DNA of 64,000 nt, from IMG/VR virus record IMGVR_UViG_2918987250_000001, positions 1-64,000 of that record; one strand, given 5' to 3'. The translations under genes were made by a program, and so were the position numbers. This DNA is from a virus. Its lineage: Duplodnaviria > Caudoviricetes. The first letter of the stretch is position 1; the number at the start of each line of letters is the position of its first letter. Shown piece by piece: positions 2,182 through 47,314 of this stretch. The notes under the pieces are model-generated. The model had not been told where the DNA came from. It was given only the letters and a program-made list of their open reading frames with translations, and made no database searches.

Positions 2182-2205
2182 AACTACAGCAGCCTCTAGG
2201 AAGAC

Positions 2206-2472: not shown

Positions 2473-2487
2473 CAGGCTCTCCATGAA

Positions 2488-4436: not shown

Positions 4437-4696
4437 GCCGCGACGGGCTCCTTGATCTGCTTGCCGTCCTCGAAGCGACCGATGACCTCGGAGTCGCCGG
4501 TGCCCCAGTTGGCTCCGTTGAGGCACTCCTCGATGAGCATCGCCTTCGTGAGGTTCGGCTTCACGCTGATCTTGATGACCTCGACGACGCCCTTGCACGA
4601 CTTCGACGCCTCGCGGGCCTCGTAGAAGGCGTTCATCTTGAGTGCCCGGTAGCGCAGCGGTGCGCCGGGCGCGGGGCGGTATGCGAAAATCCTCAC
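4433..4696 (-). CDS. Hypothetical protein
   Basis: GTG start overlapping upstream stop; ends VAA. Confidence 0.6.
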   Translation of the reverse strand: MRIFAYRPAPGAPLRYRALKMNAFYEAREASKSCKGVVEVIKISVKPNLTKAMLIEECLNGANWGTGDSEVIGRFEDGKQIKEPVAA

Positions 4697-5085
4697 TGGG
4701 GTGCGTGCTCCTTCAGCTCTTGGCGCGCGCCGTAGAGGATCGCGCTGGTGTCGGGGTCCACGAGACCGTGGGTGGTGTCGAAGAGGGCGTCGATCACGAG
4801 CCACAGCTCGCGCTCGGTGATGATGTGGCAGGCGTGCTTGTGGACCGCGTCCTGCACCGCCTGCATCGCCTTGCGGGCGATCTCCTCCTTCATCGTCGCC
4901 CACTCGCTCTGGGGCTCGCGCTTTGGAGGATTGGCGCCAAGGCTGCTTGGCGCTTTGGCTGGTTGGCGGAATTTCTCGCCGAGCTGCTTGAGCAGGGCGA
5001 CTGCCGGATGACCGGGTCGGAGCTTGTTGACGGCCAGCGCGCCGGCTTGGGCGGCTTGCGCGTAGCGCTCGCGGGTGTCGCTCAT
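4693..5085 (-). CDS. Hypothetical protein
   Basis: 130 aa, directly downstream of promoter at 5123. Confidence 0.7.
   Translation of the reverse strand: MSDTRERYAQAAQAGALAVNKLRPGHPAVALLKQLGEKFRQPAKAPSSLGANPPKREPQSEWATMKEEIARKAMQAVQDAVHKHACHIITERELWLVIDALFDTTHGLVDPDTSAILYGARQELKEHAPQ
4923..4970. repeat. Phased octamer array G (intragenic)
   Basis: ttggagga/ttggcgcc/aaggctgc/ttggcgct/ttggctgg/ttggcgga. Confidence 0.75.
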
Positions 5086-5122
5086 TCTGTGTGCCTCTCG
5101 CTGTGACGCTGCGCAGTCTCGT

Positions 5123-5144
5123 TATAGCTGCGCAGCGTCGGGTT
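5123..5144 (-). promoter_or_regulatory. Promoter-like motif AACCCG-N10-GCTATA
   Basis: Exact match. Confidence 0.75.
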
Positions 5145-5147
5145 GTC

Positions 5148-5165
5148 TAAGTCAGTGCTGACTTA
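5148..5165. promoter_or_regulatory. 18-bp palindromic site
   Basis: TAAGTCAGTGCTGACTTA. Confidence 0.85.
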
Positions 5166-5166
5166 C

Positions 5167-6843
5167 CTAGACGGCCTTGAGATTGCCGAGCGCGATGTGA
5201 CGAGCCAGGCTCTTGCGGCACATCTTAAGGGCCTTGTCGATCTGGCGCAGCGTGGCGCCGGCGTTGAGCATCTCCTGCGCCTTGTTGAGCTTGGCGCGAT
5301 ACTCGTCGGTGATCGTGGCGACCGGCGCTTCCGCCTTGCGGCCTTCCTTGATGCGCGGCGCGGCGGCGACGGTCGCCTTCTGCTTGGCAGGGGAGGGGGT
5401 TGCCGTCACGACAGCCGGGGCGTCGGCCGGGGCCTTCTTCACCAGCTCCTTGATGAGCGTGTTCGGAATGCCGAGCGTGCCGTAGGCCGGGCACTTCACC
5501 CGCACCCGCGAGGCGCGACCGTCGTTCGAGACCCGGTCCACCTCGTAGAGGCCGTCCGTGATCTTCTCCGAGCCGACGACGCGCACCAAGTCGCCCGGAC
5601 GGGCGAGCTGCCAGGGCTCGGTGCCTTCCGGCTCCGGCTCGACCGCGGGGGAGGGCGGTGCGACGACCGTCAGACGCCCAACCGAGACCCAGGCGCCGTT
5701 CACGAACGCGGTGCCGCCGTCCACCGACTTCACCGGCACGGGCTTGCCGGCGCCGTCGATCTTCACCATCGCGCCCGCGACCAGCTCGGGCACCGGCACC
5801 GTGCCGGTCTCCTGGACCGCGTCCACGACCTTGCGCGCGTCCTTGATCGCCTTCTTGACCGCCTTCGGGTCGATCGGCTTGGGCTTGCCCTTGATCGGAC
5901 GCACCTTGCCGCGCTTGGCCGTCACCTCGACCTTCTCCAGCACCTTGACGGTGTGCTCGCCCTGCTTGCCGACGAGGACCTCCTCGATCACGCCGATATG
6001 CTGGCCGGCGACGATCTCGGCGACGATCCCCTTGGTGCCCTTCGCCGACAGCGCCGAGCTCTTGGCCGACACCGCCTTGTGCGCGTCTTCGTCGAGCGCC
6101 GCGACGATGTGGTAGGCGAGCACGCGCATCTTGGACGACTCGTGATGCGGGATCGCGACCACGTCCTCGGGCCGCACCTTCACGAGCAGGATGCGGTTGC
6201 CATACTGGCCGTAATCCTTGGCGCAGACGTGCAGGCCGACGCCGCAGCTCGCGCGGCTATCCTGGTAGTCCTTCACGTCCATGTAGACCCGCGAACCGAT
6301 GCGCTGGCGCACCTTCCCGGTGTGGTGATCGACGTAGTAGCCCTCGTCCGCCGCGGCATCGAGGAACTTGTAGAGCACGAGGCAGCCGTCGTCGGCGAGC
6401 GGCAGATCGACCTTCTCCATGAACCGCAGCACCTCCTGGGCCGTGTCCTTGTGATCGACCTTGGCGAAGCGCTCGAGGAACGCAGCGAGGCCGGGCGAAC
6501 CCTCGTAGGCTGCGCGCTCGATGTGGACGGCGAGCGTCTGGGCGTTCTCCAGGCGAGCCCCGGCCGCGGTCGTCAGCGCCATCTTTGAGACGCCGTCCTC
6601 GACCTTCTCCTCGACCTTCATCGCGCCGCCGGTGGCCGCCTCGACCACCTTGGCGAGATTGAACTCCTCGAGATCCACCTCGATCGGCTCGCCGCCGGCC
6701 TGCGCCAGCGGCAGCAGCACCGCCTTGAGCAGATCGCCCGTGCGCCAGGAATCCTGGCCGTAGACCGCGCTCTGCCCGGTCGGGAAGAACAGGGTGATCC
6801 CGTTCTTCGACGCAATCGCGCCGGAAACCTTCGTCATGACCAT
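5167..6843 (-). CDS. rIIB: rIIB-like protein
   Basis: DGCLVLYK...D.HTGKV...CGVGLHVC...LVKVRPEDVVAIP signature; follows rIIA. Confidence 0.85.
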   Translation of the reverse strand: MVMTKVSGAIASKNGITLFFPTGQSAVYGQDSWRTGDLLKAVLLPLAQAGGEPIEVDLEEFNLAKVVEAATGGAMKVEEKVEDGVSKMALTTAAGARLENAQTLAVHIERAAYEGSPGLAAFLERFAKVDHKDTAQEVLRFMEKVDLPLADDGCLVLYKFLDAAADEGYYVDHHTGKVRQRIGSRVYMDVKDYQDSRASCGVGLHVCAKDYGQYGNRILLVKVRPEDVVAIPHHESSKMRVLAYHIVAALDEDAHKAVSAKSSALSAKGTKGIVAEIVAGQHIGVIEEVLVGKQGEHTVKVLEKVEVTAKRGKVRPIKGKPKPIDPKAVKKAIKDARKVVDAVQETGTVPVPELVAGAMVKIDGAGKPVPVKSVDGGTAFVNGAWVSVGRLTVVAPPSPAVEPEPEGTEPWQLARPGDLVRVVGSEKITDGLYEVDRVSNDGRASRVRVKCPAYGTLGIPNTLIKELVKKAPADAPAVVTATPSPAKQKATVAAAPRIKEGRKAEAPVATITDEYRAKLNKAQEMLNAGATLRQIDKALKMCRKSLARHIALGNLKAV

Positions 6844-9325: not shown

Positions 9326-9928
9326 CTAATGGAGAGATGAGGACGCGCGCTTCTTGGCGTTCTCGGTCAACCAGTCGGCGATAACTTCGCAAACACCCTG
9401 GAGACGCTTGTCGGGGTCAGTCGTGGAGACCCGAATGGACATCGGACCCCTGAGCATCTGCATGGCGCCTTCCATGATCCAGTGGGTGTGCCACTGGTAG
9501 GCGCGGTTGGGCGGCGCCTTGCCTTCCGCCATCTCGTAGGTGGGGAGCGGGCAGGGGACGAAGATCATGGCGAAGTTCCGGTTCGCCATCGTCAGCGCCC
9601 GCTCGCAGTAGTCGCGGATGCGCTCGCCCTGCTCGGGCGTGGTCGCGTGCATGCCGACCTCGGCCATCATGTAGCCGATGAGGTCGATGGGCGTCCGGTC
9701 CACGATGGTCGGCCGGTCCAGGCTGCCGAGGATCTCGCCGTAGGCCTTGAGGTAGGCGTCCTGGGCGGCGAGCCGTTCCTCGATCGGCAGGTTGCCGATG
9801 TTCTCGTAGCCGGCCGCCTTCATGATCTCGGCCGTCTTCATCTCGAAGTAGGGGAGTCCGAGCGCCTCGCCGGCCGCGCGGGCGAGAGTGGACTTGCCGG
9901 TGCGCGATGCACCCGTGAACCCGATCAT
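9326..9928 (-). CDS. P-loop kinase (putative dNMP kinase, AAA_28-like)
   Basis: GASRTGKS Walker A, DRTPID motif; next to dut and thyX. Confidence 0.75.
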   Translation of the reverse strand: MIGFTGASRTGKSTLARAAGEALGLPYFEMKTAEIMKAAGYENIGNLPIEERLAAQDAYLKAYGEILGSLDRPTIVDRTPIDLIGYMMAEVGMHATTPEQGERIRDYCERALTMANRNFAMIFVPCPLPTYEMAEGKAPPNRAYQWHTHWIMEGAMQMLRGPMSIRVSTTDPDKRLQGVCEVIADWLTENAKKRASSSLH

Positions 9929-15332: not shown

Positions 15333-15902
15333 CTATGCCGCCAGCGCCCGCGGCCTCCAGACGGAGAGGAGACGGCGAAATTCGTCGGTGAGCACGCCGG
15401 CCTCGGCGACCGCGATGGCGTCGGCCAAGTGCTCGTTCTTGGCGATCAGCGCGCCGTTCGGGTTGTTGCGCGCCCGCAGCCAGGTCGGGTGCGGATACTT
15501 CTCGACCGCCCAGTCGATCATCTGCTGCTTCGAGGCGGACTTGCCGAGGCCGGTCACGTCCTTGGTCTCGAGCGGCATGACCTGCACGATGGGCGTGGGC
15601 GAGCCGCCGAGGATGCCGCAGACGATGCCGAAGGCGCGGGCCGCCTTGGCGTCCTGGGCGCCCGAGGGGATCTCGGAAAACACCAGGGTCCGGCCGACGG
15701 CCGCCTTGTGGAACGCCTTGTAGAGCTTGGTCGAGCGCACGAGGTCGTCGGAGGTGACGCGGGCCTGCTTGACCTTCGTCTTCTCGGTCTCGGTGAGGAT
15801 CAGCTCCTCCAGCTCGAGCTCGAGGGTGTCGGTGTCGAGCAGCATCTTCGCCATGCCCCAGGCGGTGAAGCTCGGGTCGCACGAAAGGATCGGGATCTTC
15901 AT
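15333..15902 (-). CDS. ruvC: RuvC-like Holliday junction resolvase
   Basis: ILSCDPS..WG, SE, ASKQQM, EHLADAIA; start reassigned. Confidence 0.8.
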   Translation of the reverse strand: MKIPILSCDPSFTAWGMAKMLLDTDTLELELEELILTETEKTKVKQARVTSDDLVRSTKLYKAFHKAAVGRTLVFSEIPSGAQDAKAARAFGIVCGILGGSPTPIVQVMPLETKDVTGLGKSASKQQMIDWAVEKYPHPTWLRARNNPNGALIAKNEHLADAIAVAEAGVLTDEFRRLLSVWRPRALAA

Positions 15903-16213
15903 GACCATGTGCCCCATTCGGGGCTCTCCAGTTCGGGCGCCTCGGGCGCCGTGGGTGAAAGGGTGATCGGCACGCCCATGTCCTCGCCGGCGTCGTGATG
16001 CTGGCGCCAGCCGGGTGTGGTCGTCGTGTCGGTGAGCTGGACGAAGGTGCGCCGCTCGGTGACGACGTAGGAAGACACGCCGCCGTAGGGTGAGGTGTGC
16101 TCCTGGGTGTCCGTCTCGATCGCGACCTCGACCACGGTGCCCTCGAGGAGCGTGCCGTCTTCGAGTTCGATGCGGGCGATGCCCGACGTGCGGAATCTGT
16201 CGCGCGTCACCAC
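15899..16213 (-). CDS. Hypothetical protein with C-terminal WGTW tag
   Basis: Ends ESPEWGTWS. Confidence 0.7.
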   Translation of the reverse strand: MVTRDRFRTSGIARIELEDGTLLEGTVVEVAIETDTQEHTSPYGGVSSYVVTERRTFVQLTDTTTTPGWRQHHDAGEDMGVPITLSPTAPEAPELESPEWGTWS

Positions 16214-16833
16214 GTCCCCCAGAGCGGGTTGGTGGCTGCGTCGAGCTCGTCCTCACGCGCCCGCGCCTCGGCTGCTTTCGCCCGACGCTCCTGCACGATG
16301 TGCTGGATGCGGTGAGCGTAGCGATCCTCGACCTCGTCCTGTCGCTTGCGCACCGCGTCCGTGTATTCGACGATCGCCAGGCTATCCCGGCCGTCGAGGC
16401 GCATCCACGGACGCTCCTCGTTGAGCGGGGAGGGGGTCCAGACGAACGCACCCTTGCGCATCACCATCGTCTGCTCGTTGCCGAAGGTGAAATGGCGATG
16501 CCGAACGACGGTGTCGTCGAAGGCGATGTTGCCGCCCTGGAGCTGGATCGGAGCGACGATCGCCGGCCGGGGCAGCTTCACCGCGCCGACCTCGGACGCG
16601 AACACGAAGTCGATCGACAGGATGCGGAAGCAATCCGTCGGCGCGGATTTCATCGTTCCCGGCTCAACGAGGCCGATGTCCTCGATGTAGCGCTCGATCC
16701 GCGCCTCGAACCAGAGCCCGTTCAGCTTGAACAGGCGCCGGGGATCGGGCGCTGAGCCGCGGATGCGCTGCGGCGTCCCGTAGAACACGCAGTCGTGCCC
16801 GAGGGCCGCTTGGAACTCCTCGCAGAGCCTCAC
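16207..16833 (-). CDS. Hypothetical protein with C-terminal WGTW tag
   Basis: Ends ATNPLWGTW; GTGA-coupled start. Confidence 0.75.
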   Translation of the reverse strand: MRLCEEFQAALGHDCVFYGTPQRIRGSAPDPRRLFKLNGLWFEARIERYIEDIGLVEPGTMKSAPTDCFRILSIDFVFASEVGAVKLPRPAIVAPIQLQGGNIAFDDTVVRHRHFTFGNEQTMVMRKGAFVWTPSPLNEERPWMRLDGRDSLAIVEYTDAVRKRQDEVEDRYAHRIQHIVQERRAKAAEARAREDELDAATNPLWGTW

Positions 16834-17357
16834 CAGGTTCCCCACATCGGGTTGTCGGCGTAGGCGTCGGCCTGCGAGCGCTTGGCGTCGGCTTCGCGCT
16901 TGAGCTCCAAGGCGGCGAGCAGCTCGGGCATCGCGGCCCGGAAGGTGCCAACGGCGCTCGCCAGCGAGGCGTTGGAGGCGATGAAGGGCGCGTCCAGGTC
17001 CTCGAGCTCGGCGTCTGCCTGCGCCTTCGCGAGGTAGGTCGCGAGCGCATTCACGAACGCGCTCTCGGTCTCGCCGAAGAGGTGCAGCTTGGCGCCGTCC
17101 AGCTCGGCGTGGAGATAATCGACCGTGTCCATCGCGGTCATCTGAGCGATGACCTGGCCGCGGCCGCCGAGGCGAACGCCGGTGAGGAGGAACTCCTCGA
17201 CGCCCTTGAACTTCATCGTCTTGAACGGCCGGTTCGGGTCGTTGTAGGCGACCGGCAAGCTCATCGGTCCGGGCAACTGCATCAGGCGGCTGTCGCAGAC
17301 CGGAGCCAGCGCCGCGATGATGTGGCCGTTGGTATCGAGTTCCTTCGTCATCCCCAT
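16830..17357 (-). CDS. Hypothetical protein with C-terminal WGTW tag
   Basis: Ends ADNPMWGTW. Confidence 0.8.
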   Translation of the reverse strand: MGMTKELDTNGHIIAALAPVCDSRLMQLPGPMSLPVAYNDPNRPFKTMKFKGVEEFLLTGVRLGGRGQVIAQMTAMDTVDYLHAELDGAKLHLFGETESAFVNALATYLAKAQADAELEDLDAPFIASNASLASAVGTFRAAMPELLAALELKREADAKRSQADAYADNPMWGTW

Positions 17358-23290: not shown

Positions 23291-24397
23291 TCAGGCGGCT
23301 TCCTGGATCGGCTCGGCCTCGGACTCGCCGTTGAGCTCAGCCTCGGCGACGACCGGCGGCTCGTAGGCCTTCGGCAGCAGCGCGTGCAGCTCGGCGAGCG
23401 CCTTGTTGGCCTCGATGCGCCGGGCGAGCTGCTCCTTGTGGATCGCCTTGCCGTCCCAGAGCACGCGACCGGCGCCCTTGTCCTCGAGCAGCTTCTCGGC
23501 GACCAGGAACTCGATCAGCGAGCGCTCCACGTCGAACTTGCCGAAGCCGTCCTCCTGGAAGATGAAGCGCCAGGACGCGCGCAGGAACGGCCGCGAGACC
23601 TTGTTCTTGGCGACGACGCCCGAGACCTCGACGCCCAGGATCTCGGCGTTCTCGCCGGTGCCCTTCTGGATCTTCGAGGCCGCGCCGAGCATGAGCTTCT
23701 GCGTGTCGTAGAAGTAGGGGCTCTCGCCGCCCGGCGTCTTGCGCGGGTCGCCGTAGACCACGCCGATCTTCATGCGGATCTGGTTCGTGAAGATCGCCGA
23801 GATGCCGAACTCCTCGATGTAGAGGTTGAAGGTCGGAAGGTGAGCCGACGTGGCACGGGCGAGCGCCGTGTTGTCGTTCATGTTCCGGTCCGTCATGTCC
23901 CGGTCCTTCTTGGTCTTCATGTCCATCAGAGCGGACTGCGGGACCATCGAGGCGAGGGAGTCGAACACGAAGCAGATCGGCGCCTCGGGCGCGATGAGCT
24001 TCTGCTTGCGGATCAGCTCACCGGCGCGGACGGCCATCGTCAGGCTATCCTCGAAGGTGCGCGGCTTCTTGTAGATGAACTTGCCGGGCGTCACATCGAG
24101 GCCGATCCGCTTCGCCAGGGCGCCCGAGAACGAGCGCTCGTGATCGAAGAAGCCGGCGATGCCGCCCATCGCCTGCGCGGCGATCATGGCGCGGGTCGCG
24201 ATGGCCGTCTTACCGGACGTGGACGGGCCGGCGATCTCGACCTGACGCCCGACGGCGATGCCGCCATCCCAGCGCGAGGAGAGGGCGTAGTTGAGCGGGG
24301 CGTAGCCGGTGTCGAGGAACTGGCTGACGGTCGCCTCCTCGTCGTTGGCGCCGATCAGCCCTGCGAGGTGCTTCGCGATGTCAGATGCGCTTGCCAT
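23291..24397 (-). CDS. recA: RecA/UvsX-like recombinase
   Basis: GPSTSGKT, FDSLASM, FTNQIRMKIGVVYGDP.KTPGG, KNKV; start at ATG 24397. Confidence 0.93.
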   Translation of the reverse strand: MASASDIAKHLAGLIGANDEEATVSQFLDTGYAPLNYALSSRWDGGIAVGRQVEIAGPSTSGKTAIATRAMIAAQAMGGIAGFFDHERSFSGALAKRIGLDVTPGKFIYKKPRTFEDSLTMAVRAGELIRKQKLIAPEAPICFVFDSLASMVPQSALMDMKTKKDRDMTDRNMNDNTALARATSAHLPTFNLYIEEFGISAIFTNQIRMKIGVVYGDPRKTPGGESPYFYDTQKLMLGAASKIQKGTGENAEILGVEVSGVVAKNKVSRPFLRASWRFIFQEDGFGKFDVERSLIEFLVAEKLLEDKGAGRVLWDGKAIHKEQLARRIEANKALAELHALLPKAYEPPVVAEAELNGESEAEPIQEAA

Positions 24398-24900
24398 TAC
24401 TCGTCGTTCTCCACGTCGGTCGGGTTGTTGTCCTCGTCCTCGTCGAGGAAGAGGGCGTCGTCGTCGGCCGCGGGCTCGGCCGGGGTTTCGGGGCGCCGGC
24501 GAGCCTCGCTGACGAAGCGGCCGCCGAGGTCGTTCACGCTCGGGCCGCGCGGGGCGGCCGGGGCAGGGGAGCCGGGCAGGGCGATCAGCGGCACCACGGC
24601 CGGGGCTGCGATGCCGGCCAGCGCCGGCAGGTCCTTGGCGAGCGAGAAGTCCGAGAGACCGGCCGCCTGGACCGATGCGAGCGCCTTCTGCTGCGCGGCG
24701 CTGCCGGCGAGCGCGAGGAAGCTGAACGCCTTCTCGACCTCGGACGCCTTGAGCTTCACGCCCTCGCGCTCCACGAGCTTCACGAGCGCGGTGATGGAGC
24801 GACCGACGCCCGCGACGGCCGCCTCGAGCTTCTGCTGCGGGTTGCGTCCACGCACGCCGCGCGCGGGGACCTTCTTCTTCGTGGTTGCCTTCGTGGTCAT
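24397..24900 (-). CDS. Hypothetical protein (basic N-terminus, acidic C-terminus)
   Basis: 167 aa, coupled to both neighbours. Confidence 0.7.
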   Translation of the reverse strand: MTTKATTKKKVPARGVRGRNPQQKLEAAVAGVGRSITALVKLVEREGVKLKASEVEKAFSFLALAGSAAQQKALASVQAAGLSDFSLAKDLPALAGIAAPAVVPLIALPGSPAPAAPRGPSVNDLGGRFVSEARRRPETPAEPAADDDALFLDEDEDNNPTDVENDE

Positions 24901-25937
24901 GCTGCCTTCCGTAAGTCAGTGCTGACTTCACTCAGGGCGCGAAACGGCTCGAGCCAGCCATCCACGTCGCTGAGGATCTGGTTGAAGAGGAGATCGGAGC
25001 ACTGGTCGCGCACCGCCTCGGGGTTGAACTCGCCCGGCGTCAGGCGCGGCCGGAGCGGCGCCGGGATGTCGGGGTGGTGGAGATCCATCAGCCGCAGGTT
25101 GCGGTAGAAGATGTCCCGCTTCTCCGGCGAGGAGCAGAAGTCGGCGAGCTTCTTCGGCACCTTGGCCTTGTGGATCTCGACCGCGTCGAAGAAGCCCTTC
25201 ACCGTGCCGAAGGCCCGGACCAGGTCGAACGCGCCCTTGTCTCCGATGCCGCCGACACCGCAGATCTCGTCGGAGCCGTCGCCCATCAGCGCCTTGACCT
25301 CGAGATAGGCCTGCGGCGAGGGGCAGCCGCGCCACTCGATGTCCTCGATGAGGGTCGAGCCGTCCGCCTGCTTGGTCTTCTTCTGCTTCATGTAGCCGAC
25401 CTCCTTCTCGAAGGTCTGCGCCGTGATGCGCTTCTTCTGCACGGGCGCGTGCCAGGCCACGCCGGGCTGCACGAGCTGGAGCCAGTCCTTGTCGCCCGAG
25501 ATCAGGAGGATCTTGTGCCCCTTGGCCGCCAGGTCCGGCTGGTAGCGGCGCACGAGGATGCCGGCCCAGTCGTCGGCCTCGAGGTTGGCAGCCGAGAGCT
25601 GGTGGACGCCGCAGGCCTTGAGGAGCTGGAAGGCGAGGGGCTTCTGCGTGCGCCAGCTTTCGCGGATGCGCGCCTGCTCGATTTCGTAGGGCTTGGGCGC
25701 TTCCTTCACGGCGTCGCGCGAGCCCTTGTAGCCGTCGATCTCCTTCTTGCGCCACGAGTCGCCGTCCCAGAGGATCAGCGGCCGGAGCTGCGGGTAGGTC
25801 TCCACCATCTTCTTGATGGCGCGGATGACGCCGAGCGCGCCCTGCGTCTCCTGCTCGCCCACCTTGAGCACCCGCGTGCTCGTGGCGGCGAAGCCGATGT
25901 TATTAATATCAATCAAGAGGTGTCCGCGGTGCGTCAC
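24897..25937 (-). CDS. 5'-3' exonuclease/flap endonuclease (Pol I N-terminal / T4 RNase H-like)
   Basis: LLID, YKGSR, EADD, SGDKD, GDGSD..GVGGIG. Confidence 0.92.
   Translation of the reverse strand: MTHRGHLLIDINNIGFAATSTRVLKVGEQETQGALGVIRAIKKMVETYPQLRPLILWDGDSWRKKEIDGYKGSRDAVKEAPKPYEIEQARIRESWRTQKPLAFQLLKACGVHQLSAANLEADDWAGILVRRYQPDLAAKGHKILLISGDKDWLQLVQPGVAWHAPVQKKRITAQTFEKEVGYMKQKKTKQADGSTLIEDIEWRGCPSPQAYLEVKALMGDGSDEICGVGGIGDKGAFDLVRAFGTVKGFFDAVEIHKAKVPKKLADFCSSPEKRDIFYRNLRLMDLHHPDIPAPLRPRLTPGEFNPEAVRDQCSDLLFNQILSDVDGWLEPFRALSEVSTDLRKAA
24912..24929. promoter_or_regulatory. 18-bp palindromic site (gene 3' end)
   Basis: TAAGTCAGTGCTGACTTC. Confidence 0.8.
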
Positions 25938-28004: not shown

Positions 28005-28616
28005 TCAGGGCGTCGCCATCGTCTCGGCAGCTTCCGCCGCGGCCGAGCGGCCGAACCGGGCCGCGACGCGATCACGGGCAGACATGCCGGCCTGCTCCTG
28101 CTCGCGCTTGACCGCCATCGACAGCTCGCCGGCCCGCTCCTGACGGTCGGTGGCGCCGGCCTGGACGAGCATGTCCTTGCGGTGCCGGAACGCCTCGAGG
28201 GTGGTCTTGGCGACGGCCTCGATCTGCTTGGCCTCGTTCAGGGCACGCTTGAAGGCGACGACCTGCGGGTGCCGGGTGATGCGGCGCTCTACGATGCCTT
28301 CCGTGACCTTCTCGCCGAGCAGCGCCATGCGGGTGCGGATCTCGCGATCCACCTTCGCCTCGGTGTTCTCGATGAGGATCTTGATGTCATCGACCTGCTT
28401 CGAGGCCTTGGCCGCGAGCACGCCGTAGTAGGAGAACAGACCCGCCTGCTCAGCCATCGCCTCGGAGAGGCCGTTGGGCGAGTAGTTGAGCTTCGCCTTG
28501 AGGTCCTCCTCGGCGAGGAAGTCCTTCACCTTGAACTTGCGCACGATCACCGGCGGCTCGGGCGGCACGGTCGGAGGCGCGCTCGGCGCCTCCTCCGTCG
28601 TGGTGTCCTTCGCCAC
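28005..28616 (-). CDS. UvsY-like recombination mediator (helical)
   Basis: Helical pattern ...KVTEGIVE...LEAFRHRKDML; near SSB and RecA. Confidence 0.55.
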   Translation of the reverse strand: MAKDTTTEEAPSAPPTVPPEPPVIVRKFKVKDFLAEEDLKAKLNYSPNGLSEAMAEQAGLFSYYGVLAAKASKQVDDIKILIENTEAKVDREIRTRMALLGEKVTEGIVERRITRHPQVVAFKRALNEAKQIEAVAKTTLEAFRHRKDMLVQAGATDRQERAGELSMAVKREQEQAGMSARDRVAARFGRSAAAEAAETMATP

Positions 28617-28621
28617 CGAGA

Positions 28622-29317
28622 TCAGGCCTTCGCGGGCCAGAACCAGGTGCCCGGCTGCTCGGCCGAACCCTCGACGCGGCACTCGTCGATCACGATGGGG
28701 CCGCGACCGGGCGGGAAGGCGAGGAGCGAGACGATGTCGTGACCGTCGCCGGCCTCGAACACGGCGCAGACCAGAGCCGCCCAGTGCTTCACGCCCTTCG
28801 AGCCGTGATGGAAGTTCTCGGCCTCGGTCGGCACGTAGTGGACGATGCGGCCGGCGCTCGGGCGCGGCGCCGGCGGCGCGGGCGGGGCCTTCGGCTTCAG
28901 GCTGTCGAAGAACTCCTTGAGCGTCTCCTCAATCACCGCGTCGAAGGCGACGTTGAACGCCTGCGCGGCCCGGCGCTCGAAGATGTCGTCGAGCTGGGTG
29001 CGGTAGAGGTCGTTGAACTGGGTGCAGGGGTTGGAGTCGAACTCGAACACCTGGACGAAGCCGCCGAGCACCGCGTCACCGTTCGAGGCGACGTAGAAGA
29101 CGTTCGGGTCGGTGGTGAGGGTCCAGAGCGACTCCGGCAGGGTGCCGAGGATGGTCTCGACATCCGCCTCGATCTCGGCGTCGCGCTGGGCCTCGTTGAC
29201 CACGTCGCCGAGGTGAACGTCGCCGTTGATGGTGAGATTGATCGTCACCGGCTGGGCCGGTTCGCCGAGCGGCTGGATCATGCCGGAGAGGAAGGAGAGC
29301 GGGTTGTGGGCGTTCAC
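28622..29317 (-). CDS. Hypothetical protein
   Basis: 231 aa downstream of promoter at 29354. Confidence 0.7.
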   Translation of the reverse strand: MNAHNPLSFLSGMIQPLGEPAQPVTINLTINGDVHLGDVVNEAQRDAEIEADVETILGTLPESLWTLTTDPNVFYVASNGDAVLGGFVQVFEFDSNPCTQFNDLYRTQLDDIFERRAAQAFNVAFDAVIEETLKEFFDSLKPKAPPAPPAPRPSAGRIVHYVPTEAENFHHGSKGVKHWAALVCAVFEAGDGHDIVSLLAFPPGRGPIVIDECRVEGSAEQPGTWFWPAKA

Positions 29318-29399: not shown

Positions 29400-32300
29400 T
29401 CAGGCGTTCGCGAGGGTGGAGGCGACCTCGAAGACCTCGTTCAGCTTCGCCTGCTTCGAGGAGTCGTGGAAGATCTCGCCCGGCGAGAAGCCGATCACGA
29501 GGTTGGCGTCGAGCTCCTTGTGGTAGACGACCTCGCCGGCCGCCTCCGACGCCTTCCCCTTGAAGTCGGGGATGAACTGCCGGAGCACGGTCGAGCCGAG
29601 CAGCACGATCACGGGCGGCTTGAGGAGCTCGATCTCGCGCTGGAGGTAGGGCGCGTAGGTCGCGATCTCGGCAGCCGTGATCTGCTTGCCGGCCTTGGGC
29701 CGCTTCAGCAGGCCGGTCCAGTAGGCGTCAGCCCGGCCGAGGTCGTTGGCGTCGAGCGCCTCCTGGACCCACTCGTTGATGCAGACCGCACCGCGCTTCG
29801 GGTCGTAGGTGAAGCGGCCCTCGGCATCCTCACCCCGCGACGGCGCGTCGGCGATGACCATGAAGCGCATGTCGCGCCCCGTGACCATCTTCACCGGCAT
29901 GCCGTCATCCGCGCAGCCCTCGGCATAGTCGGCGAAGACCGAGAGGATCTCGATCTTGGTGTCGCGGTCGCGGTGCATCTGCCGGTGGATCGGCACGTAG
30001 GCCGTCACCAGGCCGGGGATCAGCTCGCGCTGGTCCTTGATCCGGTCGGGGTGCTTGCGCACCAACTGCCCCGGCTCGATGTCCGCAAACGCGCCGACCG
30101 TGTCGAGCAGCCCGACGTGCTTGACGTTGCAGCGCCGCCGCTCGACCCGCTCCACGAGATCGGCCTTCGACTTGAACGGGCCGGCCTCGCGCGCCTTGAG
30201 GATCGCGGACGTGGTGAGCGCCGAGATACCCTTGATGCGGTTGAACGGCATGACGAGCCGCGCATCCGTCACGATCTCGAAGCGATCGGACGAGTGGTTG
30301 ATGTCGGGCATGTCCACCTCGATCCCCATGCGGTCCGCGTCCTTCATCAGGCCGGGCAGCTTGTCCTGGGGCATCAGCGTCAGCGCCGCGGCGAAGAACT
30401 CCACCGGGTAGTGGGTCTTGAGATACATCGCCTGATAGGAAATCAGGGTGTATTCGACCGAGTGGCTCTTGTTGAAGCCGTAGCCGGCGAAGCCTTCGAT
30501 CTTGTCGAAGAGCGCACCCGCCCATTCCGGCGTGCATTCCACCGTCTTGAGGCAGCCGGCGACGAAGCCGGCGCGCTCCTTCGCCATCTCCTCGGGCAGC
30601 TTCTTACCCATGATCTTGCGCAGCTTGTCGGCCTGCGCGCCCGAGTAGCCGGCGATCACCTGGGAGGCCTTCATGACCTGCTCCTGGTAGACGAACACGC
30701 CGTAGGTCGGGCTCAGCACGGGCTCCAAGAGCGGGTGGTCGTAGTCCACGCTCTCGTGCCCCTGCTTGCGCTTCCAGTAGGAGTCCATCATCCCGGATTC
30801 CATCGGACCCGGACGGTAGAGCGCGGTCGCGGCCGTGATGTCGTCGAAGCTGATGTTGCCGTCCCGTCCGAGCTCCTTCAGCAGGCGCCGCATGCCGCCG
30901 CCCTCGAACTGGAAGATGCCGGTGGAGATCGCGCGAGCGAAGTTGTCGAGCACCTTCGGATCGTCGAGCGGAATGCGCAGGAGATCCACGCGCTTCGAGC
31001 GACGCTTGCGGATGTAGTCGAGGGCCAGCGCGATCAGGTCGAGCGTGTTGAGGCCGAGGATGTCCATCTTCACGAGGCCCTGGTCCTCGACGATGCGCTT
31101 GTCCCAGCAGACGACGGGCAGGTCGGGCACCGGCTCCTCGCCTTCCTTCGGCTTGGCCGGCGCCTTGCGCCGCTCGATCACCGCCCGCTCGACCAGATCG
31201 ACACCGCCGACGACCACGCCGGCCGCGTGCTGCGAGAGGTTGCGCAGACAGCCCTCGAGGTTCGTCGCCGTCTCCCAAATGATCGGGTTCGCCTTGCGGA
31301 AGTCGCCGATCTCCGAGACCTGCTCGGCCGCCGCGTTGAGCTTCACCGGCTGGCCGTGGACCTTCGGCACGAACTTCGAGCAGCGATAGGTGTCCTCGGG
31401 CAGGCCGAACACGCGGCTCACGTCACGGATGGCGGATGCCGAGCCGAGACGCCCGTAGTTCGAGACGCCGGCGACGCGCGCGGTGCCATACTTGCGGATG
31501 AGATACTGGAACACCTCGTGCCGGCGCTCGGACATGAAGTCGAGGTCGGCGTCGGGAAGGTCGATACGCTCGGGGTTGATGAAGCGTTCGAACAGCAGGC
31601 CGAAGCGAAGCGGATCGCAGTCGGTGATCCCCATGAGGTAGGCGACGAGCGAGCCGCCGACCGAACCGCGGCCCGGCCCGACCAGGATGCCCTGGCTCTT
31701 GGCCCACACCACCACGTCCTGCACGAGCAGGAAGTAGCCCGAGAAGTTGAGGTTGCGCAGGACCGTCAGCTCGTAGTGGAGCCGCGGCTTGTAGACCTCG
31801 GTGAGCTCCGCGGCCGACGGCCGGTGCCCGAACACATCCTTCGTGAAGCGCTCGTGCCAGCCGCGCCGGCACGCCTCGGCGACCGCCTTGAACTCGTCAG
31901 GCGCCATCACGGGCAGCGAGGGCGCGGACTTCTTCCAGGCGAACGTGACCATGTCCACGAGCCGGGCCGTGTTCTTGAGCCCCTCGGAGAACCGGCCGTT
32001 GGTCTTGACCCCGCGGTGCCGCTCCAGCCGGTCGGCTGCGGCCTTCACGTCGCGCACGAGCTCGCCGATGGTCTTCGGGTGCAGGTCGCGTGCCGCGTTG
32101 AACCACGCCCACGGCTCGGAGAGCTTCACGTTGCGGGTGACGGCGTTCATGATGTCGGCCGCATCCGCGCCGCCTTCCTCGTAGAGGGTCGGCGTCACCA
32201 CGAGCGTCGGCAGGCTGAGCTCGTCCGCGAGCTTCAGCGCCTTGACGTTCTGCGTGTCCCAGTAGGGCGTGTCGATCGGCACCAGCGAGACGAACGTATT

Positions 32301-42807: not shown

Positions 42808-42825
42808 TAAGTCAACACTGACTTA
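42808..42825. promoter_or_regulatory. 18-bp palindromic site overlapping ligase stop
   Basis: TAAGTCAACACTGACTTA. Confidence 0.85.
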
Positions 42826-44241
42826 CGCAGCCACGCGCAAATTTTCGTCCTTGTCGTCGCGGAAGCGGACGAAGCGCGGGTGCCGGAGCGAGCCGTCGGG
42901 CGTCACCTCGTGGAACTCGACCTCGCACAGCCGGAACGGGGTGAGGAAGCGGCGCCGGACCTTGCCGTTGACCGTCCAGGGTTCGCCGGCCGGCATCTTG
43001 CGGACCTCGGCATCCCAGAACGCCAGCTCGTCGTGCTTGTAGCCGCCGCCGACGGCGACCACGACCATCTCGCCGTTGTGCTCGCGCTCGACCAGGAAGC
43101 CCGCGAACTTGTCCTCGAGCGCACGGCCGGGCTCGCCGGTCTGCCAGCCGATGATGCGCAGGTCCTCGGTCTCCTCGGCCTTGATCTTCTGCCAGATGTG
43201 ACCCTTCTTCCGCACGTAGTGACCCTCGAGAGGCTTCACCATCGCGCCCTCGAGCTTGTTGCTCCGGTGCTCGTTGTAGACCTCGATGATCTCCTCGTGG
43301 CTGTTGATCTCGCGGAAGTCGGTGAGCCGGATCGGGGCGCCCTCGGGGGCGTGGGCGACGATGAACTTGAGGAACTTGCGCCGCACGCGCAGCGGCACCT
43401 TCCACTCGATCTGCGTCGGGTCGCGCATGAAGGCGTAGGGCACGGCGTCGAAAAGGTAGAGCAGCGCGTCCTTCGCCTCGTTGCCCTTGCGGCGCAGCTC
43501 GCCCGAGGTCTCGGCGTAGGAGCGCGTCATCATCTCGCCGTCGAGCGCGCAGCTCGGGCCGTCCTCGCCGCCGAGCCAGCGGTAGAAGTGCTCGGCCGGG
43601 CCGGAGCCGGCCACGAACAGGTTGTAGGCCTTGTCGTGCGCAGCCGCGACCATGTCGGCGAGGTAGGGGCCGGCCCAGTCGAGCTGCGGGAAGTGGTTGC
43701 CGACCCGCGAGAACGCCTTCGACACGCCGCCGGTGACGAGGCTCATGCCGCGGAATCCATCGAGCTTGGGCTCGACCGCGACCGGGAAGACCTTGATGCG
43801 CTTCTCCTCGTAGGCCCTGGAGAGCATCAGGTCGAAGGTCGGCACCGTGTTCGGCAGGACGCCGTTGATCGTCTTCTCGGAGATGCCGCAGCGCAGGTCC
43901 TTTGCCAGGATGCGCCAGAGCACCTGGGCGGCCGGGCCGTTGAACTCGGCGAAGAGCTTGTCCACTGCGGCCTTGGCCGCGTTGCCCGTCAGCTCGCGCG
44001 CCTTGAGCTTGTGCAGCGTGATCCAGGGCTCGGCCGTCTCCAGGTCGAAGGCCAGCTCGCCGGCGACCTTGGGCGGCTTGGGCGGCGTGATGCCGAAGGT
44101 GACGAACGGGTCGTAGGCGAGCCGCACGGTCTCCTTCACGAGCGGGTCGTCGATGTGCTGCCGGAGCAGATCCTCCTTGGCGTTGCGCGAGCTCGTCGCC
44201 GCGATCTGCTCGAGGAGGGTGAAAACGTCGAACGAGTTCAC
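42823..44241 (-). CDS. lig: ATP-dependent DNA ligase
   Basis: EPKLDGFR, LDGE, EGAMVK, SLRHPRFVRFR. Confidence 0.93.
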   Translation of the reverse strand: MNSFDVFTLLEQIAATSSRNAKEDLLRQHIDDPLVKETVRLAYDPFVTFGITPPKPPKVAGELAFDLETAEPWITLHKLKARELTGNAAKAAVDKLFAEFNGPAAQVLWRILAKDLRCGISEKTINGVLPNTVPTFDLMLSRAYEEKRIKVFPVAVEPKLDGFRGMSLVTGGVSKAFSRVGNHFPQLDWAGPYLADMVAAAHDKAYNLFVAGSGPAEHFYRWLGGEDGPSCALDGEMMTRSYAETSGELRRKGNEAKDALLYLFDAVPYAFMRDPTQIEWKVPLRVRRKFLKFIVAHAPEGAPIRLTDFREINSHEEIIEVYNEHRSNKLEGAMVKPLEGHYVRKKGHIWQKIKAEETEDLRIIGWQTGEPGRALEDKFAGFLVEREHNGEMVVVAVGGGYKHDELAFWDAEVRKMPAGEPWTVNGKVRRRFLTPFRLCEVEFHEVTPDGSLRHPRFVRFRDDKDENLRVAA

Positions 44242-44251: not shown

Positions 44252-44371
44252 TTAGATGAGGACGAAAGCGATTAAGAGGAGCCAGCCCCAGCCGTCGTGC
44301 CCGGTCAGCATGACGACGGCAGCCAGGACGAGGCTGATGAGGACAAGGAACGAGCGATCGGCGCGGCTCAT
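44252..44371 (-). CDS. 39-aa hydrophobic membrane peptide
   Basis: Read manually: MSRADRSFLVLISLVLAAVVMLTGHDGWGWLLLIAFVLI; fills the gap between ligase and upstream gene. Confidence 0.55.
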   Translation of the reverse strand: MSRADRSFLVLISLVLAAVVMLTGHDGWGWLLLIAFVLI

Positions 44372-45069
44372 CACGCAGCCGCCTTTGCGGCCTGCCGGGC
44401 GCGAGCCATCTCGAGGAGCGACATTCCCTTGCCGGCCGGTGCCGGTTCGGGAGCGGGCTTGGGGGCGGCCGGCGCGGGCGCAGGCGGCTTCGGAGCGGGT
44501 GCCGGCGTCTTGGGTGCCGGCGCGGGCTTCACGGGCTCAGCGGCCTTCGCAGCAGCCTTCGTGACCGCGGCCGACAGGTCGCCGCTGATCGCTGCCTTGG
44601 TGAGCTCGTCGTCCTCGGCCGGCTTGGGTGCGCTGGCCGGCTTCACGGGCGCGAGCGTGACCGAGGCCGCCTTGCGCGCCGACTTGCGGGCAGAGCCGGT
44701 GCCGGCCGCGTCGTTCATCGCGGCGATGGCCTGAGCCTCCGCGCCGCCGACGCCGAGTTCGTTCATCGTCTGTTCCCGAACGATGATCGGCCCGATCTGG
44801 TCGAGGATCTCCGGCCGCAGCGCGACCACCTTGGGCTCGCTCGCGTGGTAGTGGTCGTTGCCGGTGCGCTGGATGTCGCGGTTGATCCAGTAGATCGGAC
44901 ACTTGGAGCCGCGGATGCAGGCCTGGCAGCCGCGCCGCTCGTCCTGGATCTTGCCGCGCGCGAGCTGCTGCTCGAGGGCGAAGCAGTCGGCGATCTTGGT
45001 CTCGGCCCCGAAGATCGGGCAGACGATCAGCGCCTCGTTCTTGGGCGAGTAGGTCTTGATGAGCGTCAT
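44371..45069 (-). CDS. Cys-rich (Zn-binding) protein with Pro/Ala-rich tail
   Basis: CPIF..C...CQAC....CP. Confidence 0.75.
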   Translation of the reverse strand: MTLIKTYSPKNEALIVCPIFGAETKIADCFALEQQLARGKIQDERRGCQACIRGSKCPIYWINRDIQRTGNDHYHASEPKVVALRPEILDQIGPIIVREQTMNELGVGGAEAQAIAAMNDAAGTGSARKSARKAASVTLAPVKPASAPKPAEDDELTKAAISGDLSAAVTKAAAKAAEPVKPAPAPKTPAPAPKPPAPAPAAPKPAPEPAPAGKGMSLLEMARARQAAKAAA

Positions 45070-45071
45070 GG

Positions 45072-45296
45072 CTACCAGGATCCCCAGGTATCATTGACCG
45101 CGAGCTCGGCGTTCAGGGCGGCCTCTTCGGCCTCCTGCTGAGCGAGCACGGCGGATCGGTTGTGAAGGAGGGTGACGAGCTGACGCTGCGGCTCGCGCAG
45201 CGCGACGATGACTTCGGCGCGCGCCATCGAGGTTAGCGCCTCGAGAAGAGGCGGCATCCAGCGGCGCGTGTTGGGAACGGTGATCGCCTCCCTCAC
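45072..45296 (-). CDS. Small protein with C-terminal WGSW tag
   Basis: GTGA-coupled start; ends AVNDTWGSW. Confidence 0.65.
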   Translation of the reverse strand: MREAITVPNTRRWMPPLLEALTSMARAEVIVALREPQRQLVTLLHNRSAVLAQQEAEEAALNAELAVNDTWGSW

Positions 45297-45820
45297 CACG
45301 ATCCCCAGTTCGGGTTGGCTGCGACTTCTTCCTCGACCGTCGGCGCGGCCGGATCGACGAAATCCTTGAAGACGTGCTTGGGCTGGTAGCCCTTGCGGAC
45401 GACCTTGCCGTCGCGATCGAACTCGGGGACCGGGTCGGGCTCCTTGACGCCGGACACGTCGAGATCGGGGGCGACGTGCAGCAGGTTCGCGGCGCCCATG
45501 TTGAAGCGCAGGTGAGGCCCGAGCGCCTTGGCGAACTCGGCCGCGTTGGCGCACTCGATGAGGTTGTCGCGGCCCGCGTCGTGCTCGTAGCCGCCGCGGT
45601 GGCTGCGCTTCTCGCTGTCCTTCATCTCGAAGGAGGTGACAGCCATTTCCGAGCGCTCGAAGGTCTCGACCTTCATTTGCCCGGTGGTGTTCTTCTTGCC
45701 CCAGCGCTGGACGAGAACGGCCCGGCCCTCGCCGTTCACGATGAGGACCTGGTGGTATTCCTTGGTGCCCTGTCGATGCAGCATCGACTTCTTGCGGATC
45801 GCGATCGGGTAGACCGTCAT
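45293..45820 (-). CDS. WGR-domain protein with C-terminal WGSW tag
   Basis: KEY...VLVQRWGK...GQ....F....A...F.....K....GY; ends AANPNWGSW. Confidence 0.75.
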   Translation of the reverse strand: MTVYPIAIRKKSMLHRQGTKEYHQVLIVNGEGRAVLVQRWGKKNTTGQMKVETFERSEMAVTSFEMKDSEKRSHRGGYEHDAGRDNLIECANAAEFAKALGPHLRFNMGAANLLHVAPDLDVSGVKEPDPVPEFDRDGKVVRKGYQPKHVFKDFVDPAAPTVEEEVAANPNWGSW

Positions 45821-45865: not shown

Positions 45866-45887
45866 TATAGCGAACGCTTCTCGGGAT
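45866..45887 (-). promoter_or_regulatory. Promoter-like variant ATCCCG-N10-GCTATA
   Basis: One mismatch to consensus. Confidence 0.7.
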
Positions 45888-45888: not shown

Positions 45889-45906
45889 TGAGTCAGTCCT
45901 GACTTA
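45889..45906. promoter_or_regulatory. 18-bp palindromic site
   Basis: TGAGTCAGTCCTGACTTA. Confidence 0.8.
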
Positions 45907-45911: not shown

Positions 45912-47045
45912 CTAGGCAGCTTCGAGGGTCTTCTGCCGGCGCAGCGCGGTGTAGGGGTTGCGCAGGCGCCATTCGACGGCGAGGCGCGAAGAGAACTCCT
46001 GCGCCTCCCAGATCGCGCGGCGCACGACCGCGGGCTTGGCATCGTTCGGGTCCTGGTCGAGCGGCAGCAGGGCGACGCGCGCCTTGAGGCCGATCTTGCG
46101 AATGGACTCGGCCGTCTTCGTCGCGGCGACCAGCGCGTCGGGCGTTCCGTCCCAGCAGATGATGACCTCCTCGAGCCCGTAGCTCTTGAGGATGAGGAGC
46201 TGGCCGAGCTGGTCCTTACCCTCGAGGTCGCCGGTGGAGAGGTGCTTGCCGAAGGACCCGACCGGCACGATGTCGCGCAGGTCGCTCTCCTCGTCGAGCG
46301 CCGCCTTGAGCGAGAACACGTCGAAGGCGCCCTCCCCCATCACGATCCGGCGCGCCCGCACCGCGTTCTGGCCGTTGAAGAGGAAGCGCCCGGTGCCCGG
46401 CAGCGCGGGTGGGAAGAGGTATTTCGGCTCCTGCGTGCCGATCACGTCGCGGCCCTGGAAGGTCACGAGCGTCCCGTCGAGGTCGTAGACCGGGATGATG
46501 AGACGCTGCTCCCACTTCTGGCCGCCGCGCTTGCCGTCGTCCTTGGTCCAGTTCCACCAGCCGTCATCGCAGTAGCGCAGGTGGAAATAGGCCGCGAGCT
46601 CGGGGCTGATGCCGCGATCGGCCAGATACTTGAGCGTCTGACCCTCGGGCGTCGGCAGCGCGAAGCTGTCGGGCAGCTTGATCTCGCCCGGCTCCACGAT
46701 CGCGGCCGTCGTGGTTCGTTTCGGGCGCCAGCCCTGGTCCACGCAAGCCTGCTTGACGTGCTTGAGGGTGTCGCCCCACTTCGCCGCGTTCTTGTCGCCG
46801 TGCAGATAGGCGTTGATGAAGTTGAGCTTGGTGAAGGTCGTGTCGCACACGAAGCACTTCCCCAGGCCGGAATCCGCGTTGAGGTAGACGCGGTAGCGGC
46901 TGTCCCGGCAGTGGTCCTGCGGGCAGTCGCGGCAGTTGATCTGCATGCCGCTCGAGCCTCGTGTGGGGCCGCGGTAGGCAAGCCCCTCGCGGTCGAACCA
47001 CTGTTCGAGGTCGAGCTCCTCGGCGAGCTCCTGGAAGTCGCTCAT
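45912..47045 (-). CDS. dnaG: DNA primase (Zn ribbon + TOPRIM)
   Basis: CPQDHC...CFVC, YL..RGI, EGAFD, WD, DPND; start at ATG 47045. Confidence 0.9.
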   Translation of the reverse strand: MSDFQELAEELDLEQWFDREGLAYRGPTRGSSGMQINCRDCPQDHCRDSRYRVYLNADSGLGKCFVCDTTFTKLNFINAYLHGDKNAAKWGDTLKHVKQACVDQGWRPKRTTTAAIVEPGEIKLPDSFALPTPEGQTLKYLADRGISPELAAYFHLRYCDDGWWNWTKDDGKRGGQKWEQRLIIPVYDLDGTLVTFQGRDVIGTQEPKYLFPPALPGTGRFLFNGQNAVRARRIVMGEGAFDVFSLKAALDEESDLRDIVPVGSFGKHLSTGDLEGKDQLGQLLILKSYGLEEVIICWDGTPDALVAATKTAESIRKIGLKARVALLPLDQDPNDAKPAVVRRAIWEAQEFSSRLAVEWRLRNPYTALRRQKTLEAA

Positions 47046-47314
47046 ACGAGGCTCGCGATGTCGAGGACGCTCTCGAGGCGGGTTTCGAGCGTCTTGATCC
47101 GATCCTTCGCCAAGTCCAGCTCGATCTGGCGCCGGCACTGAAGCTCCTGGTATTCATTGAGATCGACCGAGTTCGCCTCGCGCCAGGCAAGCCCGAGCTG
47201 GTTCTGGTCGATCGGCACCTCGTGCTCGACCATGAGCGCCATCACCGGCCGCGGCGGCGTGAACCACCGGCGCTGGGTGTAGCGAATCTCGAAACGGTAG
47301 CGTCCGGTCTTCAC
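47042..47314 (-). CDS. Hypothetical protein
   Basis: GTG start coupled to upstream stop; about 90 aa. Confidence 0.6.
   Translation of the reverse strand: MKTGRYRFEIRYTQRRWFTPPRPVMALMVEHEVPIDQNQLGLAWREANSVDLNEYQELQCRRQIELDLAKDRIKTLETRLESVLDIASLV

Follow-up and report, generated by a model that had tools for sequence, protein, structure and literature searches.

A predicted WGR-domain protein of a phage-plasmid group and the C-terminal aromatic tag that it shares with unrelated replication and early proteins

WGR domains bind DNA breaks and nicks in PARP1, PARP2 and PARP3, where they touch the 5' end at the break; for the stand-alone WGR proteins of prokaryotes we know of no established role. 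Cellular replication and repair are also organised by short docking peptides read by one hub, such as the tip of SSB and the motifs that bind PCNA, the beta clamp or Ku. Here we describe a phage protein of 175 amino acids (aa) that combines a WGR domain with a short aromatic tail, or tag, ending NPNWGSW. It is encoded on the minus strand at 45293-45820 of the window analysed, which is the first 64 kb (64,000 nucleotides) of IMG/VR virus record IMGVR_UViG_2918987250_000001. The complete record is 117.5 kb at 66% GC, and its relatives are Rhizobium phage RHEph10, the Pseudomonas Nickievirus phages and Salmonella phage SSU5.

Several described systems resemble this one in part. WGR domains are fused to ATP-dependent DNA ligases in delta-proteobacteria, Planctomycetes and P. 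marinus (PMC7470946), so that WGR is tied to an ATP-dependent ligase there as it is here, which suggests an accessory DNA-binding module for nick sealing; at the phage locus, however, WGR protein and ligase are encoded separately within one operon, and a gene for a Cys-rich protein lies between them. The Ku-binding motifs of XLF, PAXX and APLF dock on the vWA domains of Ku70 and Ku80 (PMC10413649), bringing unrelated repair factors to one hub with the same layout of head, disordered linker and short C-terminal motif. Clamp motifs (QL[SD]LF or QLxLxL, the ImuB motif QLPLWG and the C-termini that bind T4 gp45) likewise place a short hydrophobic or aromatic C-terminal peptide on many proteins, in the manner of a toolbelt, but the phage tag lacks their Gln and has instead an obligatory Gly-x-aromatic with Asn-Pro upstream. 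The closest motif-level analogue in the literature is the FGDF or FGxF motif found in alphavirus nsP3 and in USP10, which the NTF2-like domain of a single hub protein, G3BP, binds (PMC4450067, PMC12077208); it has the aromatic-Gly-x-aromatic core in common with the tag, but it is eukaryotic and internal. No Ku, no phage clamp and no NTF2/SnoaL-like domain was detected in the phage: a six-frame Pfam search of the 117.5-kb genome, at the level of sequence only, returned nothing at E<=10 for NTF2, SnoaL_2, DnaN, the gp45 clamp, PDZ_2 or Ku. Its only vWA domain is that of a CobT-like protein.

A sequence-only reading of this DNA had called the domain WGR-like, a description that is borne out by hidden Markov model search, by profile comparison with the PDB and by the predicted fold. 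Model PF05406 matches residues 20-79 with 30.6 bits (E=3.8e-7) against a gathering threshold of 22, and precomputed annotation places it on 10 close homologues too; among homologues whose source is named, the closest comes from Methylobacterium oryzae. The signature R39-W40-G41-K42-x-x-x-x-G47-Q48 is present in the protein and recurs through its family, with Arg at 39 in 134 of 136 members, Trp at 40 in 101 of 136 (the remainder Tyr or Phe), Gly at 41 in 124 of 136 and Lys or Arg at 42 in 130 of 136. When the family profile was compared with the PDB, the WGR domain of PARP3 was found at E=4e-6 and that of PARP2 at E=0.015, with RWGKxGxxGQ of the family paired with RWGRVGxxGQ of PARP3 and PARP2. 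An AlphaFold2 (AF2) model has a mean predicted local distance difference test score (pLDDT) of 78.8, ranging from 84 to 93 over residues 1-120 and from 50 to 58 over residues 131-175. Its top Foldseek matches are all WGR domains of PARP3, PARP2 or PARP1 (2eoc, 6f1k, 6f5f and 6x0m; probability 1.00, E 4e-4 to 1e-2), and a DNA-bound PARP2 structure is among the nearest solved structures.

By sequence and by predicted structure, then, the 175-aa protein carries a true WGR domain (PF05406), which shares its fold and the R-W-G-[RK]-x-G-x-x-G-Q signature with PARP1, PARP2 and PARP3. It differs from the PARPs in standing alone, without a catalytic, zinc-finger or BRCT domain, and in adding two helices, a disordered linker and the C-terminal tag. 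Three parts can be delimited on the minus strand: an ordered head at 45461-45820 (residues 1-120), in which Pfam, the PARP3 profile, AF2 and Foldseek place the WGR domain and two extra helices; a linker of about 48 residues at 45317-45460, taken as disordered from its pLDDT of 50-58, rich in Val, Asp, Pro, Lys and Glu, and with a short helix at 162-167; and the tag NPNWGSW at 45296-45316, defined by its sequence and by the family consensus, which TGA follows directly. Among the longer proteins searched, no fusion of this WGR family, such as one with a ligase, turned up, a result that counts as weak evidence.

The tag is as well conserved as the WGR signature. A profile search of 1.84 billion cluster representatives gave 437 relatives at E<=1e-3, almost all of them 160-190 aa in length and matching end to end, and the tag was counted in the best 150 of the 437, none more than 50% identical to another. 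Among these representatives 141 of 150 end in [WFY]-G-x-[WFY] followed by no more than one small residue, while the nine exceptions are truncated or show near variants such as WGMI, FARF and FRRF. The family consensus is [ND]-P-x-[WFY]-G-x-[FW]-COOH, and the WGSW wording found here is a minority dialect of it. A tail profile was built from 136 tails anchored on the last aromatic residue, position -1, which is Phe in 117 and Trp in 19. Position -2 is Met, Leu, Arg, Ala, Thr or Ser; Gly at -3 is present in 136 of 136, but is fixed by the selection motif; position -4 is Trp (74), Phe (43) or Tyr (19); position -5 is Leu or Asn; Pro is found at -6 in 102; position -7 is Asn in 95 or Asp in 18; -8 is mostly Ala, Ser or Asn; and -10 is hydrophobic (Tyr, Val, Ile or Leu). 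Asn at -7 and Pro at -6 reach a frequency of 70-75% of tails.

The information in the tag (4.3 bits for Gly, 3.7 bits for the terminal Phe or Trp) equals that of the WGR signature residues, whereas the linker between head and tag cannot be aligned across lineages. The comparison of tag with linker that the sequence-only reading had proposed, run on aligned homologues, thus gives a tag kept in 141 of 150 and a variable linker: the tag is conserved independently of the linker, and the tail is under selection. Literature on the sequence variants of the tag and on SSU5 C-terminal motifs gave no description of it. The SSB-tip type of C-terminus (acidic D-D-D-[IL]-P-F-COOH) was rejected as a match, since the tag has no acidic run at -2 to -6 and the polarity is reversed, with the tag on many clients and not on the hub.

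The tag is not confined to the WGR family. Across the 117.5-kb genome the pattern WG.W occurs nine times in 62,832 residues of coding-like open reading frames (ORFs), and six of the nine occurrences are at the extreme C-terminus; genome-wide, six ORFs end WG[ST]W, in one case with a further Ser after it. Chance does not account for the tags. Besides the WGR protein, the carriers include a 74-aa protein encoded next to it and cluster 1, a group of three more tagged genes at 15899-17357 on the minus strand, between SbcC and RuvC, with the ends WGTWS, WGTW and WGTW. Strict tags number six in this genome and four to seven in each of six assembled relatives, and the 42 tagged ORFs of the seven genomes form 26 unrelated BLAST families once the tag is removed. 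The earlier suggestion of a portable module attached to different functional domains is therefore sustained, the tagged 74-aa gene being an optional insert. Only the WGR family and the cluster 1 family of 16830-17357 are tagged in six of six alpha-type genomes, and the WGR family is the most conserved tag carrier. All tagged genes lie in replication or early modules, and none is among the structural genes. A search of IMG/VR for the DNA pattern NPxWGxW-TGA yielded genuine tags on just four contigs: three measure about 110-116 kb and the fourth 63 kb. Two of the four (L026 and L040) have recognisable homologues of the SbcC-RuvC cluster 1 region of the present phage, and another (L025) matches its late genes. 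That pattern search yielded no smaller element with tags, and a pattern search of species-representative genomes gave no relative.

Within a genome, the wording of the tag tends to be shared. Tags from different families of one genome agree more often than shuffled tags at -4 (76% versus 42%), at -2 (39% versus 16%), at -1 (76% versus 53%) and at +1 (75% versus 59%), with p<=5e-4 at each position. The wording is [FY]G[RM]F in RHEph10, WG[ST]W in the present phage, FGAF in the relative G005 and G-x-[WF]-[AGS] in nickie. As written for Nickievirus (G-x-[WF]-[SAG]-COOH), the dialect resembles the C-terminal end of XLF. Because unrelated proteins agree in their wording, the dialect suggests one partner that reads them all and drifts with phage or host. 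The pattern fits one co-evolving putative reader, and it argues for cluster 1 and the WGR cluster sharing one interactor.

The position of the WGR gene is equally constant. In 19 loci from IMG/VR and GenBank, with WGR identity of 28-64%, the order is PhoH, phrog_2500, DnaB, primase, tagged WGR protein, optional small tagged protein, Cys-rich protein, ligase, RepC (encoded on the opposite strand), CobT, CobS and a sigma-like gene, so that the location between primase and ligase remarked on at first is a fixed arrangement. Within the SSU5/RHEph10 phage-plasmids, the WGR gene belongs to the core of the alpha-proteobacterial branch. The slot that follows it holds a small tagged protein in five of the 19 loci. 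There, L010 and L046 encode clear orthologs of the 74-aa protein, at 61% and 37% identity respectively, each with the end WGMF, while L012 and RHEph10 have a different small helical protein ending WGLF or FGRF; the 74-aa gene is absent from L007-L009, L011 and B1VFA, and the slot is empty in M. oryzae-type relatives and B1VFA. The tag recurs on whichever small protein fills the slot, as a portable module predicts.

In the window the unit is encoded on the minus strand throughout. Directly upstream of the WGR gene is a DnaG-type primase at 45912-47138 (PHROG 47, E=3e-50; Pfam DNAG_N and Toprim). Both tagged ORFs were found where they had been placed, and their C-termini, NPNWGSW for the protein of 175 aa and NDTWGSW for that of 74 aa, can be read in the sequence. 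The 74-aa protein, which is helical, is encoded at 45072-45296 with its tag codons at 45075-45095, followed by TAG; GC content at third codon positions in its frame is 0.82. Directly downstream, at 44371-45069, is the gene for the Cys-rich protein of 232 aa. It is followed by a possible but uncertain 40-aa hydrophobic ORF at 44252-44374, whose only match is a weak one to a YgaP-like transmembrane family (E=0.016), and by the last gene of the unit, an ATP-dependent DNA ligase at 42823-44241 (Pfam DNA_ligase_A_M and A_C; PHROG 114, E=4e-100).

The remark that there is no GTGA overlap here holds for the junction of the 74-aa gene with the Cys-rich gene, where TAG, two bases (cc) and then ATG follow one another, but not for the junction of the WGR stop with the GTG start of the 74-aa gene, which is a GTGA overlap (cgTGGTGAgg). 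Tags ending in Trp (TGG-TGA) produce the same GTGA overlap as many genes that end in Ala. Of the 94 confident genes of this genome (G000), 23 have Ala-Ala as their last two residues, where about 1.4 would be expected, and 39 end in Ala (for example those at 42823, 44371, 45912 and 47311 of the window). The Ala-Ala ends are mostly GC[AG]-TGA, making ATGA or GTGA start-stop overlaps with GGAG before them. Because Ala-ending codons form such coupled overlaps, much of the Ala-Ala excess is a by-product of translational coupling.

The Cys-rich protein, always directly downstream and conserved only in the alpha-type genomes, has no aromatic tag. Four Cys (C17, C29, C48 and C57) are invariant in the alignment, and a motif GD[LM]xAAI(N)AA stands at or near the C-terminus in relatives; here its GD[LM]xAAI part is internal, at residues 163-169, and in the Methylobacterium clade an Ala/Pro/Lys-rich extension follows GD[LM]xAAI. 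The N-terminal domain (residues 1-125) is modelled by AF2 with pLDDT above 90, yet the fold found no match in the PDB (Foldseek best E about 1; VIA-align best Z 3.0, for helical hairpins only), nor was any Pfam or PHROG family found for the protein. It is likely to be part of the same machine as the WGR protein and the ligase.

The cluster had also been credited with a promoter and a palindrome of its own. The promoter motif, CCCG-N10-GCTATA, heads the operon at 45866-45885 on the minus strand, and a sigma-70-like scan puts a TATAGT -10 element at the same site; with 11 copies in the window against 1.5 expected, all 11 on the minus strand, the promoter is real as a class. An 18-bp palindrome, TAAGTCAGNNCTGACTTA, is indeed present at 45889-45906, just upstream of the promoter, but it does not belong to the cluster in particular: it is one copy of a dispersed family with 25 sites in the window (3591-59944) against 0.02 expected. 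Its copies often border a CCCG-N10-GCTATA promoter directly, on either the upstream or the downstream side, and sometimes supply stop codons, as for the ligase (stop at 42823-42825). Together the sites resemble a network of operators for a global regulator.

The rest of the phage offers a replication and recombination complement. It includes a T4-like set of gp32-like SSB, RecA/UvsX-like, UvsY-like, SbcCD, RuvC and FEN-like exonuclease proteins, together with DnaB, primase, ligase, a DnaE polymerase fused to a UDG-like domain, and CobS/CobT-like MoxR and vWA proteins. The RecA/UvsX-like recombinase (23291-24931, minus strand) has 546 aa, with the RecA domain at 200-460 and an N-terminal extension of about 180 residues, an extension missing from its nickie homolog of 372 aa. 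Between DnaE and the gp32-like SSB are two ORFs (28005-29317, minus strand): the first, of 231 aa, has in its C-terminal 85 residues an SH3/Tudor/S1-like barrel (ESM Atlas), and the second, of 225 aa, is helical and resembles the T4 mediator UvsY by eye only. In nickie the corresponding position has a single 426-aa gene (gp100), which may be a fused form.

The explanation we favor, and consider reasonably probable, is that the WGR protein is a tethered sensor of DNA nicks and ends, held on a shared replication-repair hub by its linker and docking peptide and probably working with the ligase. The unit of primase, WGR protein, optional small tagged protein, Cys-rich protein and ligase would be transcribed from the phage-specific promoter. 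The WGR head would then bind 5' ends or nicks, as at Okazaki-fragment junctions and at recombination or repair intermediates, while the tail, N-P-x-aromatic-G-x-aromatic-COOH, would hold the protein on one shared replication/recombination hub, and the ligase and further tools might thereby have breaks presented to them. At least five more phage proteins, all unrelated, carry this tail and would be recruited by it to the same hub in toolbelt manner, with the 74-aa helical protein as an optional adaptor. We infer DNA binding by the head, docking by the tail and co-operation with the ligase; with WGR fused to ligases elsewhere (PMC7470946) and the gene lying two genes upstream of ligase in every relative, the most economical reading is a sensor of nicks or 5' ends that would serve sealing and repair at the phage replisome.

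Several observations weigh against this explanation. A DNA-binding domain is already present at the N-terminus of the ligase, which leaves no obvious need for a separate sensor. In gamma-proteobacterial phages the slot holds a longer tagged protein, gp108 of nickie (ending GWGAFG) or SSU5_042 (ending GWATW), for which Pfam gave no WGR match and hhalign only an insignificant one (E=0.096), although nickie gp108 retains WWGKDDQVKGQ; since a slot without a significant WGR match is nevertheless tagged, conservation of slot and tag exceeds that of the WGR fold. The dialect amounts to a tendency rather than a strict code, with Trp and Phe coexisting at -1 within one phage (L010, L046); the shuffle test behind it counts genomes as independent, and part of the agreement could come from mutational bias. 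Finally, the hub has more than one candidate: the host beta clamp, the CobT-like vWA protein or another core phage protein.

If the reader is encoded by the phage, it should be among the 31 roughly called ORFs, about 18 of them non-structural, that have homologs in seven of seven genomes. The non-structural ones are DnaE-UDG, DnaB, primase, ligase, the gp32-like SSB, the RecA/UvsX-like and UvsY-like proteins, SbcC, SbcD, RuvC, the FEN-like exonuclease, CobS, CobT, PhoH, phrog_2500, phrog_3616 and the proteins of 1288-2100 and 9326-9928. P0014 (28622-29317), the protein with the SH3/Tudor/S1-like barrel, tried as a universal reader, is not conserved in all relatives and is a poor candidate. A covariation scan compared tag wording with PhoH, phrog_2500, DnaB, primase, Cys-rich protein, ligase, CobT, CobS and RepC at the 19 loci, and 134 of about 3,200 columns separate loci with Arg at -2 from those without it; such a result is expected from chance plus phylogeny. 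In the primase, the region YCDDGWWNWTKDDG (about residues 222-235 of the protein encoded at 45912-47138, minus strand) holds an aromatic WWNW loop of the catalytic core that is kept across the group, and the residue after the loop (K235 here, position 203 of the trimmed alignment) is Asp where tags have Arg at -2 and otherwise Lys, Arg or Asn. This charge swap, which takes in one nested exception (L053), cannot be told apart by statistics from an effect of phylogeny and is not counted as evidence.

One alternative makes the tail a divergent beta-clamp-binding motif by which tagged proteins ride the host DnaN used by the phage DnaE. The phage has a DnaE-type polymerase and no DnaN (a six-frame PF00712 search was negative), and in all seven phage DnaE proteins aligned the sequence D-Q-x-E-L-[IL]-P-G-[LI] (residues 964-972 of the DnaE-UDG polymerase; 30009-30035, minus strand) stands at the same place, that of the internal clamp-binding motif. 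A phage that keeps a clamp-type motif in DnaE without having DnaN probably has the host sliding clamp in its replisome. The C-termini of E. coli Pol IV (QLVLGL) and Pol II (QLGLF) follow the pattern polar amide-x-x-hydrophobic-Gly-(x)-hydrophobic-COOH; the tag has two aromatic residues near its end in every case (Trp, Phe or Tyr at -4 and Phe or Trp at -1), and its core is identical in alpha- and gamma-proteobacterial phages, as expected of a conserved host target. It also shares P-L-W-G with the clamp-binding motif of mycobacterial ImuB, QLPLWG (PMC10421592). However, the Gln that is nearly universal in clamp motifs is missing, Gln being found at -8 in only 12 of 136 tails with Asn (95) or Asp (18) at -7; the spacing is off by one residue; the motif of the phage polymerase itself is canonical, unlike the tags; and genome-specific wording is unexpected for a highly conserved clamp pocket. 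On this balance the clamp motif seems an unlikely account of the tail.

Another alternative, which we regard as quite unlikely, names the CobT-like vWA protein of the phage (35642-38059, vWA at residues 589-804) as the reader that, together with the CobS-like MoxR ATPase, docks or remodels tagged proteins. CobT and CobS are core genes in seven of seven genomes and belong to the same module, the sole vWA domain of the phage is that of CobT, and the C-terminal motifs of XLF and PAXX, which dock on the Ku80 and Ku70 vWA domains with a head-linker-tail layout, provide a precedent (PMC10413649). Covariation of CobT columns with tag wording, however, is no stronger than that of neighboring proteins once phylogeny is considered. 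Roseobacter phage CRP-810 carries CobS and CobT, yet its first 50 kb contain none of these C-terminal tags, and CobS/CobT was rejected on that ground as a sufficient marker of tags. That phage (L095, OR671924.1) is podovirus-like, with 57.7 kb, CobS/CobT at 1827-5645 and a gp27 that ends DDIPF like bacterial SSB.

It is very unlikely that the tail is a degradation or adaptor signal timing the removal of early and middle proteins. It is exposed and C-terminal on a disordered linker, and it is common to many small non-structural proteins; A-A-N-P-N-W of the WGR protein bears a loose resemblance to the part of alpha-proteobacterial ssrA tags that adaptors bind. The best-conserved positions (Gly at -3, the aromatic at -1 and Asn-Pro), however, are foreign to known degrons of ClpX, ClpA and Lon, and both of the universally tagged families are core genes of replication and recombination that have promoters of their own. 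Least credible of all is a tail that loads proteins into the capsid for co-injection, or that acts on DNA or membrane without a protein reader: a head, flexible linker and short C-terminal peptide is the layout of encapsulin cargo, the shell would be the HK97-type capsid, and a protein that binds DNA ends and enters with the genome could protect the genome's ends, but the tagged genes, none of them structural, all stand behind the early/middle promoter class in replication and early modules.

The tethered-sensor explanation leads to a wider proposition, which we put forward tentatively and hold somewhat less probable than not: that one co-evolving reader serves dozens of unrelated small proteins, and that a split PARP-like sensor, the Cys-rich protein and the ligase form a minimal viral break-repair hub. 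If true, it would mean that viral break signaling and repair can follow a logic so far known mainly from the Ku, PCNA and PARP networks of eukaryotes. A group of phage-plasmids of about 110 kb, with relatives in Salmonella, Klebsiella, E. coli, Pseudomonas and Rhizobium, appears to own such a code. The identity of the reader would give function to many "hypothetical" phage genes at once and would show how a replisome is assembled around the DnaE polymerase, and the pair of peptide and reader could serve as a compact tool. The operon itself offers a directly testable role for a stand-alone prokaryotic WGR protein.

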